Shown piece by piece: positions 13,180 through 19,007 of a stretch of DNA of 64,000 nucleotides. Each line of letters begins with the position of its first letter. The first letter of the stretch is position 1. Source of the DNA: Escherichia phage ES12; the sequence record MN508614.1. One strand, written 5' to 3'. A model generated the notes under the pieces. That model had not been told where the DNA came from, ran no database searches, and saw nothing but the letters and a program-made list of their open reading frames with translations. The position numbers were made by a program, and so were the translations under genes.

Positions 13180-13212
13180 TAATTATACCACATCCTTGTG
13201 GTAAAGTAAACT
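13180..13212 (-). promoter_or_regulatory. Early sigma70 promoter for the rIIA.1-rIIA-rIIB unit
   Basis: Minus-strand GTTTAC-(18 nt)-TGgTATAAT with a perfect TATAAT -10; a near-identical copy sits at 57390-57426. Confidence 0.55.
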
Positions 13213-15031
13213 ACTGGCTCATCCATTCTTTACGAAGGTCAGCATTATCTCCCATGAGCATTTCAAAAAGCTCTTTCCAATTCTCAGGAAGTTTAACAAC
13301 ATCATATACTGGGTTTTGAATCATCTCACGATATTCAGATTTTTCCAAAGAGCCAAGTCCCTTAATATAACGGATGCTATGTTTAGGTAGAGCATCTTTA
13401 GCACTCTCATATTCAGCGACTGTATAAAACCATTCTTGTTTTTTACCGACCTGAGCGATGATTACAGGAGTTTTGACGAAGCGAATTCTTCCTTGTTCAA
13501 ACAGTTCTGGCCAATTACTAAAAAATCCGAGCAGAGAAGGATAAATGCTTCCTAGACCATCATGGTCAGCATCAGTCATAATAGCGATATTATGATAATT
13601 CAAGTTTTCAGCTTTTTCACCGAGAACTAATCCAGTGATTGCGCAAATATCAAACAGTTCTTTGTTTTTAAGCATGTCAGCATATGACATACCCCAACTG
13701 TTGAGAACTTTACCACGTAATGGATAACCACCGTGAAGTTCTTTATCACGAACATCAATAAGATATCCGATAGCCGAATCACCCTCAGTCAAGAAAAGAG
13801 TAGTATCAGCATCTTTACCACAAAGATTCGCTTTAATATGTTTATGAACCTTAGCTTTAGAAGCCTTTTTAGCTGCTTTAGTTTCTGCTGCTTTTTCTGC
13901 CGCTAATTTACGAGCCAAAGCAGCTTCAATAATCGGCATTAGAATTGCTTCATTATTTAGAATAGCACGTGAAATCTTTTTAGCATCAAGTTGAATATGA
14001 CTACGGATTTCGCCAAATGGAGAAGTCAAACGCTCTTTAGTTTGAGAATCAAATCGCATGTTTTTCATATCACGGACAAACATAACGATAGTCAAACATT
14101 CTTTAACGCGTGCTTTAGTCACATCAATTTTGAACTTACGTTTGATTTGTGGAATAAGGTCTTCACAAATATCATCCATAACACAGTCAATGTGATGGCC
14201 ACCATTCTTAGTGTGAATGTTATTCACATAAGTTAATTGACGAAAACCATCCGGTGAACGACCAACCGCAATAGAGCAATTTTCTTGTTCTTGAACAATA
14301 GCATGCTCATCATATTGGCGTGCATATTTCTTAAAATTGCCCTGAACCTTTTTACCATTAAAGGTAAATTGAATATCAGGATAAACTACTGCAAGTGTCT
14401 GGAGACGATCTAGTGTAATGTCAAGATAAACTTGGGACAGCTCATTAGTTTCAAATGACATAAAATCAGGAATGAAAGTAACACGAGTTCCTTTCCATTT
14501 TCCAGGAATAGTTTCCCATGATTTATTTTCCATGCCATTTGAACAACGAACTACAATATTATTTTGACCATCACCAGTTTCACCAACAAACATCACAGAA
14601 AAAATGTTTGTCAAACTAGAACCAACACCATTCATACCGCCAGTGACACGTTCTTTATCATCGCCAAAGTTACCACCTGCTTTTGGAATAGTCCATGCAG
14701 CAACAGGACCAGGAATTTCTTCACCGGTAGGTGTTTTAACCATCGCCTGCGGAATACCACGACCGTTATCTTCAACTGTTACTTGATTGTTTTTAATAGT
14801 AACATTAATTTTATTTGCGAATTTAAACTTAGTACGAATACCTTCATCTACTGAGTTATCGATAATTTCATCAATAAGCTTAACAAGACCAGGTACATAC
14901 TGAACACTTTCCCATTTACCAAACAGAAAGCGCTCATGCATTTCATTAGCAGAAGAGCCAATATACATGCCGCTACGCTTTTTGATATGTTCAATATCGC
15001 TCAGAATTTTAATTTCATTCTTAATCATCAC
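13211..15031 (-). CDS. 39: DNA topoisomerase II large subunit, unsplit gene 39 (covers T4 gp39 plus gp60)
   Basis: 606 aa continuous ORF: N-terminal GHKL ATPase and C-terminal Toprim region ending ...LMGDNADLRKEWMSQ; no intervening ORF or bypass gap. Confidence 0.95.
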   Translation of the reverse strand: MMIKNEIKILSDIEHIKKRSGMYIGSSANEMHERFLFGKWESVQYVPGLVKLIDEIIDNSVDEGIRTKFKFANKINVTIKNNQVTVEDNGRGIPQAMVKTPTGEEIPGPVAAWTIPKAGGNFGDDKERVTGGMNGVGSSLTNIFSVMFVGETGDGQNNIVVRCSNGMENKSWETIPGKWKGTRVTFIPDFMSFETNELSQVYLDITLDRLQTLAVVYPDIQFTFNGKKVQGNFKKYARQYDEHAIVQEQENCSIAVGRSPDGFRQLTYVNNIHTKNGGHHIDCVMDDICEDLIPQIKRKFKIDVTKARVKECLTIVMFVRDMKNMRFDSQTKERLTSPFGEIRSHIQLDAKKISRAILNNEAILMPIIEAALARKLAAEKAAETKAAKKASKAKVHKHIKANLCGKDADTTLFLTEGDSAIGYLIDVRDKELHGGYPLRGKVLNSWGMSYADMLKNKELFDICAITGLVLGEKAENLNYHNIAIMTDADHDGLGSIYPSLLGFFSNWPELFEQGRIRFVKTPVIIAQVGKKQEWFYTVAEYESAKDALPKHSIRYIKGLGSLEKSEYREMIQNPVYDVVKLPENWKELFEMLMGDNADLRKEWMSQ

Positions 15032-15100: not shown

Positions 15101-15367
15101 TTTAAAACGGATAGTCGAATCTTTGAAGAATAGACCAGAACATACTGTTCCTTCTACTTTCTGCCCGGTAGGTCCAATAGCACGAAATCCAGTATGCTGG
15201 AAATCATTTTCAGAGCAACCGAACCAATTATATCCAGTGATTTCAATATTAGTAAAACCGCTTGATGACAAAATTTTGGTTGCATTATCAGTATCAGTAC
15301 ATCCTGCTAAAGACACTGCTAATACTAATGCTGCGATAGAACGATTAATATATTTCATAATTTTCAC
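15098..15367 (-). CDS. Lipoprotein, 89 aa (39.1 position)
   Basis: Signal peptide with lipobox LAGC (MKIMKYINRSIAALVLAVSLAGCTD). Confidence 0.6.
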   Translation of the reverse strand: MKIMKYINRSIAALVLAVSLAGCTDTDNATKILSSSGFTNIEITGYNWFGCSENDFQHTGFRAIGPTGQKVEGTVCSGLFFKDSTIRFK

Positions 15368-15735
15368 TCAAATTTAATGGCTTGAAGGAGACTAATAACT
15401 CTCAAGCGACTTCTTTCATCTTTAACTGTAAAAGAAAGAGGGTCACCAGATTTCATAGTAATAGTACATTCAAAATCAAAATCTTCGGAAACTTCTTTGA
15501 AGAAGTCAAATTCTTCATCATAAATTAGAACATTACTCTGACAACTATGAAGAATTTTTCCATCATTTCCAGATGCTGTACTAATCATTGTAACATTATG
15601 ACCTTTCATATCTTCAACGATAAATTCACTAGTCAATATTACAGCATTAATAGAACTATTCCTATTACTAGCAGAAAGTAGATATTTCTGTTCTTCACCT
15701 TCACGAATGCGATATTTCTTACCGATTTTAAACAT
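15364..15735 (-). CDS. Hypothetical protein, 123 aa
   Basis: Minus-strand ORF, stop/start coupled to neighbours. Confidence 0.6.
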   Translation of the reverse strand: MFKIGKKYRIREGEEQKYLLSASNRNSSINAVILTSEFIVEDMKGHNVTMISTASGNDGKILHSCQSNVLIYDEEFDFFKEVSEDFDFECTITMKSGDPLSFTVKDERSRLRVISLLQAIKFE

Positions 15736-15916: not shown

Positions 15917-16336
15917 TTATTCCTTAAAGTGAGCTTTCAACATCTGATACAAGGACCATGCTTGTTCATTATTTTCAATAGTAACTTTCATGATCGGGAA
16001 TTCTGTGAAATCTTCTATTTGTTCTTGCTCTTCCTGCTCTTGTTCTTCAGCTGCCTGATATGGATTTTCCACTTCATTAAAGAACTCAGCTTCGCTCGTT
16101 GAAAGCCAAATAAAATCTTCATCCAAAATATCTTTACCGGAGGATAACGCCAATCTTCCAGTAGATGTCACAATTTTAGTAGGACGACCAAGATGGTCAA
16201 TATCTATAACTTTAAAAGGTTCCATACCTAAACGCCGCGCATAGATTCCGTTATCAGTATGGTCTTTAATAAAATTTTCTTGAGCTTGTTTATTTTTAAA
16301 TTGATACCATTTATTAACTTCGAATTTAATAGCCAT
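15917..16336 (-). CDS. Hypothetical protein, 139 aa, acidic EQEQEEQEQ tract (goF position)
   Basis: Position corresponds to the T4 goF region; no motif evidence for function. Confidence 0.55.
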
Positions 16337-16563
16337 TAATAAATTTCCTTCCAGTAAGTTGTGCCGTCTTCAGTAATTTCACGAAATACACCGTAAATTG
16401 GTTGTTTATCACCGACTTTCTCATACACATAAACTGAAGTCAAGTGAGTAAACTTGACAGTGTGTTCCTTTTGAACTACTACCAAATTTGGATCAAATAA
16501 TACATCTTCAAATTCATCATTAGTGCAGTTCTGAACAATTTTGTGTTTCATTACATTCTCCAA
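16336..16563 (-). CDS. Hypothetical protein, 75 aa
   Basis: ATG at 16563 directly after a promoter-leader cassette. Confidence 0.55.
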
Positions 16564-16569
16564 GTTTCT

Positions 16570-16640
16570 GTATCAGTAGTTGATATTGATATAGTACCAT
16601 AATCAACTACTGATGTATATAGTTTTATGAAAAAATTTTA
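16570..16640 (-). promoter_or_regulatory. Degenerate early-promoter/leader cassette upstream of the 75-aa ORF
   Basis: Contains the conserved TGgTACTAT element and AT-rich upstream region but no clear GTTTAC -35. Confidence 0.3.
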
Positions 16641-16644
16641 AACT

Positions 16645-17136
16645 TTATGCATAGCGAGCTTTGCTGTAGTGTTTAATCCAGCTTTCAGGAATGACTTTGT
16701 ATGTTCCTAAAAATACAACGTTGTACAACTTAACGCCATCTTCTACCCATTGATCAGTAATGTATGCACACATAGCGCGAGTACGGCGAGGAAGGGGTTG
16801 TCCACCTTCGGTAAATTCAAACTCATAAGGAGCAACGAACTTAATAGCTTGACCGAGTTTCCACTTAAAGTCTACACCTACATGCGAAGTATCAATCGTT
16901 TCAATTCCTTTAGCGGGAACAGCTTTCAAAAACGCAGGCTCAAGAAATTTCCATCGAACATAACCAAACTGAGGTTTAGACATTCCATCTTTAGGAATGA
17001 TACGCACTTTTACTTCAGAATCTTCATCTTTAACACCGTGTTTAAGCTGAATGCTTACGACTTCAACCAATTTTCCTGCTGCTTTAGAACGGGATTTATC
17101 AGATACACGAGCCAATTCACCAATATTAATAATCAT
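16645..17136 (-). CDS. motB: MotB-like protein, 163 aa
   Basis: Length and position match T4 motB; C-terminal domain is paralogous to the next ORF (ITDQWVEDGVKLYNVV). Confidence 0.55.
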   Translation of the reverse strand: MIINIGELARVSDKSRSKAAGKLVEVVSIQLKHGVKDEDSEVKVRIIPKDGMSKPQFGYVRWKFLEPAFLKAVPAKGIETIDTSHVGVDFKWKLGQAIKFVAPYEFEFTEGGQPLPRRTRAMCAYITDQWVEDGVKLYNVVFLGTYKVIPESWIKHYSKARYA

Positions 17137-17174
17137 AGTTATCTCTCACTTGTTAAAAAGATTTTATACTCCAC

Positions 17175-17212
17175 AGGACCATTATACTCTGGTCCCAAGA
17201 GTTTGTAAACTA
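17175..17212 (-). promoter_or_regulatory. Early sigma70 promoter upstream of motB
   Basis: Minus-strand GTTTAC-(18)-TATAAT. Confidence 0.5.
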
Positions 17213-17758
17213 TTAATTCAAAATAGCTACCACCGCACTACGAGGTACTACGCTAAAATCACCTGCATGAACAACGTTCAGAAGTTCAACACCATCTTCA
17301 ATCCACTGGTCTGTTACCCAACCACAGATAGGATTATCAAAAGGACGATGGATAGACACAGCAGCACACAACAGGTCTGTAGGGTCTTGTTCTTCAACTT
17401 CTTGGAACAGGATGAACTCATCTTCATAAACCAGGTTTTTCTTTATTTTGTTATTATCTAACCGGCGACCGTGGATGACGTAAGATTTATCAAACCACTC
17501 ACTTTTGGCAAATTCTTCAACAATAAATTCGCCTTCGCCAAAAACATCAGTCAGAGTTTTATGACCAGAAATCAAGGCATTAGTTTTAATTTTAGGTTCA
17601 ACCAGTTTGTAGGTTTTGCCGATTTCAATAGCGGTAGTCATAGTAGGTTCCTTAATTTCCAGTGGTTTAACAGGGCATACATAAGTGCTTACAACATCAA
17701 AATCAATCAGTTTAGCTACCGGATTTGGTATGTATTCAGGATTATAATTAAATTTCAT
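17213..17758 (-). CDS. MotB paralogue, 181 aa (motB.1 position)
   Basis: C-terminal VTDQWIEDGVELLNVV block parallels the motB-like ORF. Confidence 0.6.
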   Translation of the reverse strand: MKFNYNPEYIPNPVAKLIDFDVVSTYVCPVKPLEIKEPTMTTAIEIGKTYKLVEPKIKTNALISGHKTLTDVFGEGEFIVEEFAKSEWFDKSYVIHGRRLDNNKIKKNLVYEDEFILFQEVEEQDPTDLLCAAVSIHRPFDNPICGWVTDQWIEDGVELLNVVHAGDFSVVPRSAVVAILN

Positions 17759-17760
17759 AA

Positions 17761-18261
17761 TTATCTCATTTCAATAAAATCTACGAGTTCAGCATGCGAT
17801 TTGCGGAACATTACTTGGTGCCCACCAATGATAACTTCATCTTCAGGAACTTCGTATACAGCGAGATAAAATCCTTTAGAAGATAATTCTTCCCGCTCTT
17901 CTCGTGTGAACCATCTCATCATATCATACTCACTAGCGAAAGCAAAATGATAAAGAGCTATAAACCATCCTGGAATATGATATTCTACTCCAACATAATC
18001 TTTCTTGAACTTAGTATTAATTACTATATTAGCGTTTTTAACTAATAGTTTATCTTCGTGTGGTAAAGGAATTCTTTTATTATTATCGCTATGATGCATA
18101 AAATTAGGTCTGTCATAACCTACGTGTAATAGCCACTCTTCGCTCCATGAATCTATTATACTCCTGTACGGCGTTATTTGAACACAAAGATTTCGACGTA
18201 TTGTTATAGCATCTTCATAATCAAGAATACTAAACGATGATTCAACACGATAAATTTTCAT
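17761..18261 (-). CDS. Hypothetical protein, 166 aa (motB.2 position)
   Basis: Minus-strand ORF downstream of an early promoter. Confidence 0.6.
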   Translation of the reverse strand: MKIYRVESSFSILDYEDAITIRRNLCVQITPYRSIIDSWSEEWLLHVGYDRPNFMHHSDNNKRIPLPHEDKLLVKNANIVINTKFKKDYVGVEYHIPGWFIALYHFAFASEYDMMRWFTREEREELSSKGFYLAVYEVPEDEVIIGGHQVMFRKSHAELVDFIEMR

Positions 18262-18284
18262 TTTATTATCCTCAGTAGCTATGG

Positions 18285-18320
18285 TGTTATAATACCATAA
18301 CTAACCGAGGAAGTAAACAA
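18285..18320 (-). promoter_or_regulatory. Early promoter
   Basis: Minus-strand GTTTAC-(18)-TATTAT. Confidence 0.45.
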
Positions 18321-18323
18321 CTT

Positions 18324-19007
18324 TTATCGTTTTGTTGGAAGAGATAGAGGATCGCACTCTTCCTCTGATGGAGCGTCTTCAAGACCCATAGCATATCGCA
18401 AAGCATACTTCATCATCAGAATGTCTTTCGCACAGTCATGAATAGAATCATGCGCAACGAATCCATCTAAAGTTCCCTTTGGAAGAGGACATGTGGTCAT
18501 ATCACGAACAAGCAGAAGTGCTTCAATTCTGGTACGAATATCACGCTGATTCCAAAATTTACATGGTTCTAACTTAAATGTGTCAAGCTCATTCTCAGAT
18601 ACACCATTAAGACGCTGAATATCACGAATGAGATCGACTAAAATTGGAAAATCAAATGACATTCCACGACACCAGCCTTGAGATTTCCAAGGATCGATAT
18701 TATGTGCATTAATGTAATCATTAAATTTTGCAATACCATCGATAGTGCTTACATCTTCATCGGATGGTGCAATATTTTTTCTAGCTTCAGGAGATTGATT
18801 CTTCCACCATTCGATAGTGCTTTTAGTAAAAAGACGATGTCCTTTTTGGCTTTTTAAATCAAACTTGATTTTAATGCCGCGTGAAACTAATTCATCAAAT
18901 GTTTCAACTACTTCTGGATTAGGGTCAAAGGCAATAACAGCCAAATCAATAACAGCTGCCTTTTCACCGCTTCCCATTGTTTCAAAATCTATAATAAAAT
19001 CAAACAT
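18324..19007 (-). CDS. dexA: Exonuclease A (DexA)
   Basis: 227 aa, DEDD-type exonuclease N-terminus (MFDFIIDFETMG); length matches T4 DexA. Confidence 0.9.
   Translation of the reverse strand: MFDFIIDFETMGSGEKAAVIDLAVIAFDPNPEVVETFDELVSRGIKIKFDLKSQKGHRLFTKSTIEWWKNQSPEARKNIAPSDEDVSTIDGIAKFNDYINAHNIDPWKSQGWCRGMSFDFPILVDLIRDIQRLNGVSENELDTFKLEPCKFWNQRDIRTRIEALLLVRDMTTCPLPKGTLDGFVAHDSIHDCAKDILMMKYALRYAMGLEDAPSEEECDPLSLPTKR

Follow-up and report, generated by a model that had tools for sequence, protein, structure and literature searches.

In Tequatrovirus, the early genes motB and motB.1 are paralogues whose products share one homologous C-terminal small β-barrel of 55–75 residues, a reading that we consider very probably correct. 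The genes were studied in a 64,000-nucleotide stretch of Escherichia phage ES12 (MN508614.1), hereafter called the window. A first-pass annotation of this DNA had described a MotB-like gene and a tandem paralogue sharing a C-terminal domain, and had read the pair as a duplicated domain with swapped N-terminal modules. Both statements were borne out. The Pfam family PF17613 covers one product over its full length and only residues 143–176 of the other, which belongs to phrog_2333; a bridging family spans the whole of the C-terminal domain (C-domain), and the N-terminal modules belong to different families. This main finding is correct and adds nothing to the literature, as the shared C-domain and its reading as duplication and module swap were published in 2021, and the N-terminal domain (N-domain) of MotB.1 in 2025. 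Specifically, Patterson-West et al. (2021) described a conserved C-terminal domain common to MotB and MotB.1 behind differing N-terminal domains, and noted that one gene may derive from duplication of the other and that categories of homologues exist with alternative N-domains (PMC7827196). An insertion in the reference T4 sequence, a DxDvxxxY motif and the apparent SH3-like character of the C-domain were not found in the two papers retrieved by a full-text search for motB.1 (PMC7827196, PMC12152347). The reference-sequence insertion, the domain charges with the order of events, and the motif as a docking-site candidate are of modest practical value.

The window belongs to a T4-like coliphage, a Tequatrovirus. 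Positions 16300–18300 show 100% identity to Escherichia phage ES26, and 97–98% to many other T4-like genomes, mostly from Escherichia and some from Shigella or Yersinia. All genes around motB and motB.1 lie on the minus strand, as do all features whose coordinates are given here. By increasing coordinate they are gene 39 (13211–15031), an 89-aa ORF, ORF123 (15364..15735; phrog_622 at 1.2e-29, phrog_2333 at 7e-4), a 39.2-like zinc ribbon, goF (15917..16336; phrog_622 at 1.6e-40), cef (16336–16563), motB (16645..17136; 163 aa plus stop), motB.1 (17213..17758; 181 aa plus stop), motB.2 (17761–18261), and dexA (18324–19007). The two ORFs of 163 and 181 aa, located from the ORF list, are therefore found exactly where the annotation had placed them. 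The T4 reference has the same order (39, 39.1, 39.2, goF, cef, motB, motB.1, motB.2, dexA); between gene 39 and cef its annotation holds only 39.1, 39.2, and goF, and ORF123 is without an annotated T4 counterpart. The start of motB.1 is 2 nt downstream of the motB.2 stop codon, and its translation may be coupled to that of motB.2. As a candidate third paralogue, motB.2 was rejected because it matches neither PF17613 nor a MotB-type PHROG. The GenBank label ‘transcriptional regulator (x3)’ is probably the result of name propagation.

The 163-aa ORF is MotB. It is covered over its full length by PF17613 (residues 1–163 against positions 1–162 of the 162-position model; 1.1e-96, 321.6 bits, cut-off 25), matches phrog_1671 at 7.7e-76, and is 89% identical to T4 MotB from end to end. 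Its position is also that of MotB, with cef on one side and motB.1, motB.2, and dexA on the other. T4 MotB is its orthologue, likewise located between cef and motB.1 and with the same two-domain layout; it differs mostly at residues 101–117, in a hairpin specific to the MotB C-domain, and by a few scattered substitutions elsewhere. The window protein is basic, with a pI of 9.4 and a net charge of +7. Its AF2 model (mean pLDDT 79) contains a five-stranded N-domain (residues 1–67) and a five-stranded C-domain (97–157). The N-terminal KOW/SH3-like barrel (16936..17136, residues 1–67), for which the comparison with a KOW sequence model gave no match, is joined by a linker predicted to be disordered (16873..16935, residues 68–88; pLDDT < 50 at residues 70–83) to the C-terminal barrel (16648..16872, residues 89–163), which is homologous to the C-domain of MotB.1. 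Among MotB homologues, the linker is the site of an insertion or deletion of 20–30 residues.

The 181-aa ORF is MotB.1, a protein that contains the MotB C-domain and is not a MotB orthologue. phrog_2333 covers it over its full length (residues 1–181 against positions 1–210 of the 210-position profile, E 1.3e-88), and the PF17613 match to residues 143–176 corresponds to model positions 120–153 (34.1 bits, cut-off 25). NCBIfam holds no model for MotB, MotB.1, or MotB.2. At E ≤ 0.001 we found 232 homologues of MotB.1, with 73–95% identity among the 120 listed. In contrast to MotB, the protein is acidic, with a pI of 4.8 and a net charge of −11. The comparison with T4 that the first-pass annotation had proposed was also carried out for this protein. 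T4 MotB.1 (phrog_2333; UniProt P39415, ‘13.8 kDa protein’) occupies the same slot in the order motB.2, motB.1, motB, but its overall identity to the window protein is 38%, nearly all of it in the C-terminal part. C-domain residues 125–153 are almost identical and the N-domain is of the same class, whereas the window protein has an additional N-terminal extension of 41 residues, in which the DxDvxxxY motif lies, and its N-domain allele is strongly diverged.

The annotation had quoted two peptides as a conserved C-terminal block, and both are present: ITDQWVEDGVKLYNVV is MotB 126–141 and VTDQWIEDGVELLNVV is MotB.1 148–163. By BLASTP the block extends over MotB residues 120–152 (16681..16779) and MotB.1 residues 142–174 (17237..17335), with 17 of 33 positions identical and 24 of 33 positive, without gaps, at E 2e-11. 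The local Smith-Waterman score was 108, compared with 29.6 ± 4.8 (maximum 57) in 2000 shuffles (z = 16), and hhalign paired the MotB family with the MotB.1 family at 98.7% (E 4.5e-16, 37 columns). A MotB-type C-terminal domain is thus present in the 181-aa ORF. The N-terminal halves, which had been described as different, gave a Smith-Waterman score of 29 compared with 26.3 ± 4.6 for shuffles, 26% of which scored as high, and show no detectable similarity in this comparison. As judged from these alignments, the similarity of the C-terminal parts is far beyond chance and the difference between the N-terminal halves is real.

The AF2 models agree with the alignment. With the MotB numbering shifted by +22 residues, as in the sequence alignment, the two C-domains have identical limits for strands 3 and 4 and also agree in strand 5 and in the C-terminal end of strand 2, the start of which lies five residues later in MotB.1. 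The predicted C-domain strands are 97–108, 117–132, 135–142, 145–150, and, after a 3-10 turn, 154–157 in MotB, and 133–136, 144–154, 157–164, 167–172, and, again after a 3-10 turn, 176–178 in MotB.1. In both models, the shared block makes up strands 2–5 of a five-stranded barrel, and the C-domain of MotB contains an extra hairpin of ~17 residues at about 104–120. Pairwise alignment and structure prediction, the checks that had been suggested, therefore yielded significant similarity and congruent C-domain strands. In these predicted structures, MotB and MotB.1 are each a tandem of two small barrels.

A bridging family extends the homology well beyond the short motif, the point on which the first-pass reading could have failed. 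With MotB.1 as the query, only 17 clusters were returned from 1.84 billion representative proteins, so the family is small, and searches of phage collections placed it in T4-like phages. Several of the clusters join a MotB-like N-domain (MKIGSRVYVS.LS.SKVAGE) to a MotB.1-type C-domain (DPTDLLC...GWVTDQWIEDGVELLNVVH). An alignment of ten such proteins, each with a KOW-like N-domain and a MotB.1-type C-domain, matched the MotB family over 132 columns and both domains (hhalign, 99.8%, E 1.8e-27) and MotB.1 residues 124–180 over 56 columns (99.9%, E 4.8e-33). In the C-domain alignment, the extra hairpin of ~17 residues is found in MotB and a few of the bridge proteins. Because the bridge family aligns across both C-domains, the common element is a complete folded domain, comprising MotB ~89–159 and MotB.1 124–180, and not a motif of 16–33 residues. 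Direct BLASTP and the family-level hhalign span just 33–37 residues, as would be expected if the block were only a short motif, such as a binding peptide or a product of chance or convergence, and not a duplicated folded domain. However, the bridge family extends the alignment at >99% probability, the strand boundaries match in both AF2 models, and the shuffle z is 16, which makes a mere short motif highly improbable.

As for its fold, the shared C-domain looks SH3-like rather than like the OB-fold of a published proposal. The combination expected of an OB-fold, a five-stranded barrel in which a helix separates the third strand from the fourth and whose structural neighbours are OB-folds, was not found for it. 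The domain resembles the small SH3-like β-barrels (Tudor, KOW, PWWP, chromo, and Hfq-like), although with only 8–22% sequence identity and without a sequence-level relative in the PDB; none of the sequences in the PDB matched a C-domain profile even at E ≤ 10.

MotB.1 consists of three parts: an N-terminal extension (17636..17758, residues 1–41), which is predicted to be disordered (pLDDT about 30) and is absent from T4 MotB.1; an N-domain (17390..17635, residues 42–123), a small barrel of the GoF/Frd.2 ‘LSm-like’ type; and the acidic C-terminal barrel (17216..17389, residues 124–181; net charge −6). The AF2 model (mean pLDDT 63.5) places the C-domain at 133–178 and the N-domain at 49–121, with block-mean pLDDT values of 67–82 in the latter. 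Its order of strand (49–52), helix (60–73), and four strands (77–85, 92–99, 108–111, and 118–121, with a helix at 112–117) fits the published description of the GoF/Frd.2 LSm-like family of the Tevenvirinae, and it shows the bent five-stranded antiparallel sheet by which that family is recognized. Kim et al. (2025) assigned the N-domains of MotB.1, GoF, and Frd.2 to this LSm-like fold family (PMC12152347). The sequence relationship with the GoF family is weak but reciprocal: MotB.1 residues 44–125 match phrog_622 (E 3.1e-4), the MotB.1 family matches ORF123 of the window by hhalign (75%, E 2.5e-5, 80 columns), and ORF123 in turn matches phrog_2333 (7e-4). ORF123 is the closest paralogue of the MotB.1 N-domain within the window. 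When the MotB.1 family was compared directly with GoF of the window, hhalign returned nothing (probability 0.2%), and BLASTP of GoF with ORF123 gave no match. Therefore, the link between GoF and MotB.1 rests on the PHROG profile and on the published fold assignment (PMC12152347). Unlike MotB.1, neither GoF nor ORF123 has a MotB-type C-domain. Variants of MotB.1 with 246–250 aa were also observed, which contain either an extra N-terminal module of ~83 residues or a second GoF-type barrel, and in which the N-terminal peptide of the window MotB.1 is an internal linker; PHROG profiles did not recognize the extra 83-residue module of the 248-aa variants, whose kinship with the GoF type is only suspected.

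The likely history of the pair is suggested by Klebsiella T4-like phages of the genera Kanagawavirus and Marfavirus, in which a single gene lies between dexA and cef and encodes a KOW N-domain, a linker, and an acidic C-domain. These proteins resemble MotB in their N-domain and the window MotB.1 in their C-domain and in the DxDvxxxY motif of their linker, and their slot is syntenic; they differ in being encoded by a single gene, where the window has two, and in having no LSm-type barrel. They are probably ‘Category 4’ of Patterson-West et al. (2021). On this basis, one ancestral gene would have encoded a KOW-like N-domain, an acidic DxDvxxxY linker, and an acidic C-domain, a form that is still present as a single copy in the dexA-to-cef slot of the Klebsiella phages. 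In the Tequatrovirus lineage, the gene would then have been duplicated. The motB copy may have kept the KOW-like N-domain, while its C-domain acquired the hairpin and became net positive; in the motB.1 copy, the ancestral-looking acidic C-domain may have been kept and the N-domain replaced by a GoF-type ‘LSm-like’ barrel. The putative donor family of this barrel has other copies in the same cluster, goF and ORF123.

Two distant genomes and patterns of similarity, rather than a rooted tree, suggest the direction of these events. In the reverse direction, an LSm-type gene resembling motB.1 would be ancestral, and MotB and the KOW-type proteins would have arisen by a later capture of the KOW domain. 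This order would suit two observations: in every category other than MotB, the C-domain is more similar to that of MotB.1 than to that of MotB, and the gene cluster is rich in GoF-type barrels. However, the single-copy syntenic gene of the more distant Kanagawavirus and Marfavirus has a KOW N-domain, the full-length alignment that pairs the bridge proteins with MotB includes the KOW domains of both, and the combination of KOW and C-domain is shared across genera. We therefore regard the reverse direction as unlikely, and favour a KOW-type ancestor.

The comparison with T4 also brought to light a peculiarity of its reference sequence. NC_000866.4, which is identical to AF158101.6, reads TGGATTGGAAGATGG, whereas T4T and MT984581 read TGGATTGAAGATGG. 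The extra G ends the annotated reference MotB.1 at 119 aa (13.8 kDa), and the remaining 28 codons (EDGVELLNVVHAGEYSVVPRSAVVAILN) are intact in the next frame, within DNA annotated as intergenic; in the annotations of T4T and MT984581, MotB.1 has 143 aa. Among the tblastn matches listed, only the two reference T4 records are split into two pieces, and the other T4-named records, RB55, and RB59 match in one piece. Programmed frameshifting in the reference motB.1 was considered and rejected, as the other listed T4 records lack the extra G. No mention of the frameshift was found in PMC7827196 or PMC12152347. The mass that Kim et al. give for the MotB.1 monomer, 13.8 kDa (PMC12152347), is also the one computed for the 119-aa form, and for this reason the C-domain of their protein was probably missing its final three strands. 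Both the T4 reference record and UniProt, whose entry likewise has 119 aa, describe a shortened MotB.1, and experiments that used this sequence may have been performed on a protein without half of its C-domain.

The frameshift in the reference T4 copy could also be taken as a sign that motB.1 is a decaying, functionless remnant of the duplication. Deletion of T4 motB.1 gives a wild-type-like burst size and latent period, and an amber mutant plates normally (PMC12152347). In addition, the RB69 copy is fragmented and was matched in 3 pieces, and P0245, representing one lineage, contains a fusion by a 43-aa deletion. Selection on the gene does not agree with decay. For eight motB.1 alleles analysed by the Nei-Gojobori method, pooled pN/pS was 0.40 in codons 1–39, 0.41 in the N-domain, and 0.24 in the C-domain, with dS of up to 0.9. 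Purifying selection is therefore seen in all parts of MotB.1, including the extension that T4 lacks. In comparisons with the most divergent alleles, dS in the extension was 0.65–0.69 and omega about 0.3; together with its pN/pS, this value argues that the extension is translated and constrained. A second possible start codon, that of Met40, has AAGGA ahead of it with a 7-nt spacer. Many C-domain residues are invariant, and among the matches listed, which include ~20 other T4 or T4-like records, motB.1 is intact except in the two reference T4 records. Taken together, these data make decay into a remnant quite improbable and favour a gene maintained by selection. Between PhiZZ30 and the window, dS is 0 in codons 1–39 and 0.64 in the N-domain; such a difference between segments of one allele pair points to recombination at module boundaries.

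What the shared barrel does is approached here through the known properties of MotB. DNA compaction by this protein is reportedly described in a 2021 paper in Nucleic Acids Research. From its 89% identity to T4 MotB and its pI, the window MotB may be credited, indirectly and by analogy, with nonspecific DNA binding, compaction, and an effect on H-NS. T4 MotB is a tight, sequence-nonspecific DNA binder of the nucleoid-associated type that copurifies with H-NS/StpA and alters H-NS footprints; its overexpression up-regulates or de-represses H-NS-silenced genes, and it improves burst size (PMC7827196, PMC6070864). The T4 transcriptome is unaltered by MotB, which is not a true transcription factor (PMC7827196, PMC6070864). 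In a reporter assay, MotB.1 had a much smaller effect than GoF(D25Y), and for an Sm/LSm-type ring AF3 gave no confident multimers in the published work (PMC12152347). MotB.1 may be too acidic to coat DNA, and the N-domain of each protein could set its ligand, which would be DNA for MotB and possibly RNA for MotB.1.

In the bridge proteins, a basic KOW domain adjoins the conserved acidic C-domain. Because the acidic C-domain was kept beside the basic KOW domain in these ancestral-type proteins, we suggest, with low confidence, that the barrel common to both proteins serves protein-protein interaction or self-association and is not the DNA-binding part. The net charges of the C-domains, +3 in MotB and opposite in sign in MotB.1, together with the single-copy KOW gene, provide a testable order of events and argue against a simple DNA-binding barrel. 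A more specific proposal, which we regard as doubtful, is that the barrel is an SH3/Tudor-like interaction module, accompanied by the DxDvxxxY motif in its ancestral acidic form, through which the acidic MotB.1 engages a partner of MotB (MotB itself or H-NS/StpA) and so modulates or antagonizes nucleoid remodelling. If this were true, the negative results published for T4 MotB.1 might not be informative, as the 119-aa form is without the last three barrel strands.

The linear motif of MotB.1, LIDFDVVSTYVCPVKPL (17660..17710, residues 17–33), has the core DxD[VILT]xxx[YF], which in the window reads DFDVVSTY (residues 19–26) and lies in predicted disorder. As a regular expression, it was found in 12 of 16 distinct proteins with a MotB.1-type C-domain and in none of 40 MotB proteins (0/40). 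Its position varies, being N-terminal in the window MotB.1 and directly before the C-domain in the KOW-type relatives. From this distribution, the motif appears to be a marker of acidic C-domains, and it is a candidate for a docking site.

A promoter-like site between motB.1 and motB (17181..17209) contains TTTACA, a 17-nt spacer, and TATAAT, with 11 of 12 matches to the consensus, and its sequence is kept in T4. We infer an early promoter of the T4 type here, which would give motB an early-type promoter of its own. The 79-nt intergenic RNA has a folding energy of −22.1 kcal/mol (z = −3.2), and none of 200 shuffles was as stable. Its stable hairpin (17168..17202) is formed around the −10 hexamer and lies where the motB.2-motB.1 message has its 3′ end. 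The 76-nt gap between motB.1 and motB holds both the promoter-like site and the hairpin.

The 41-residue N-terminal extension of MotB.1 in the window (17636-17758, minus strand) corresponds to an internal linker in 246-251 aa variants of the protein (P0037, P0072, P0084, P0233 and P0235). At their N-terminus the longer variants have either an additional module, about 83 residues long, or another GoF-type barrel. The MotB.1 protein of the window looks like a shortened form of a three-module protein. The ATG of its 181-aa form lies 2 nt past the motB.2 stop codon. Within the extension, Met40 is invariant across the family and is preceded in the sequence by AAGGA with a 7-nt spacer (window 17639-17656, minus strand), and the start of T4 MotB.1 falls near the same position. 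It is possible that internal initiation would yield a 142-aa MotB.1 isoform beside the 181-aa form.

The extension also contains a conserved linear motif with the core DxD[VILT]xxx[YF], usually with a proline-rich stretch after it, which occupies MotB.1 residues 17-33 (window 17660-17710, minus strand) within predicted disorder. The motif was found in 12 of 16 distinct proteins with an acidic MotB.1-type C-domain, where it occurs independently of the type of N-domain and at variable positions, whereas all 40 MotB proteins lack it. It is a candidate docking peptide.

Base-by-base alignment revealed an extra G (TGGATTGGAAGATGG) in motB.1 of the T4 reference (NC_000866.4 locus L001, 3720-3810, minus strand; window equivalent approximately 17290-17300) relative to two re-sequenced T4 records. 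The reference product is consequently annotated as a protein of 119 aa and 13.8 kDa, a size repeated in the name of UniProt entry P39415, and the final 28 motB.1 codons lie intact in what is annotated as an intergenic region. In T4T and MT984581, motB.1 is annotated as 143 aa, and among the matches listed, the other T4-named records, RB55 and RB59 each give motB.1 as one tblastn piece. The 13.8 kDa given for T4 MotB.1 in published work (PMC12152347) is the mass of the truncated form.

Comparison of dS along motB.1 (window 17213-17758, minus strand) with loci L007-L013 of other phages showed that synonymous divergence is uneven along the gene. Against phage CE1, dS is 0.02 in the N-extension, 0.31 in the N-domain and 0.05 in the C-domain; against PhiZZ30, the corresponding values are 0, 0.64 and 0.33. 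This mosaic pattern suggests that motB.1 alleles in circulation recombine at module boundaries. Most of motB.1 is gone in some phages. P0245 is a 43-aa ORF in which the motB.2 start (MKIYRVESSFSILDYED) is joined to the final 28 MotB.1 residues, and in RB69 (AY303349 8379-8551) the C-domain match comes in three tblastn pieces, in agreement with the "29-aa peptide" of a 2021 paper (PMC7827196).

Within the window, the closest relative of the MotB.1 N-domain is ORF123 (15364-15735, minus strand; hhalign E 2.5e-5), a GoF-family barrel protein (phrog_622, 1e-29); the T4 reference annotates no counterpart of it in the interval from gene 39 to goF. Gene 39 itself (topoisomerase II large subunit; 13211-15031, minus strand) is a single 606-aa ORF, whereas the T4 reference gene encodes 516 aa of a split subunit; the window phage apparently does not have the T4 gene 39/60 split. 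The 166-aa motB.2 (17761-18261, minus strand; phrog_1106) shows no relationship at the sequence level to either MotB or MotB.1, yet in many GenBank records all three genes are labelled "transcriptional regulator", which probably reflects name propagation.

The 76-nt motB.1-motB spacer (window 17137-17212, minus strand) combines a promoter-like site with 11 of 12 matches (TTTACA, 17-nt spacer, TATAAT) and a stable hairpin; the 79-nt stretch folds at -22.1 kcal/mol (z = -3.2). In the predicted fold, the -10 hexamer sits in the hairpin loop, and the ribosome-binding region of motB lies within another predicted stem.
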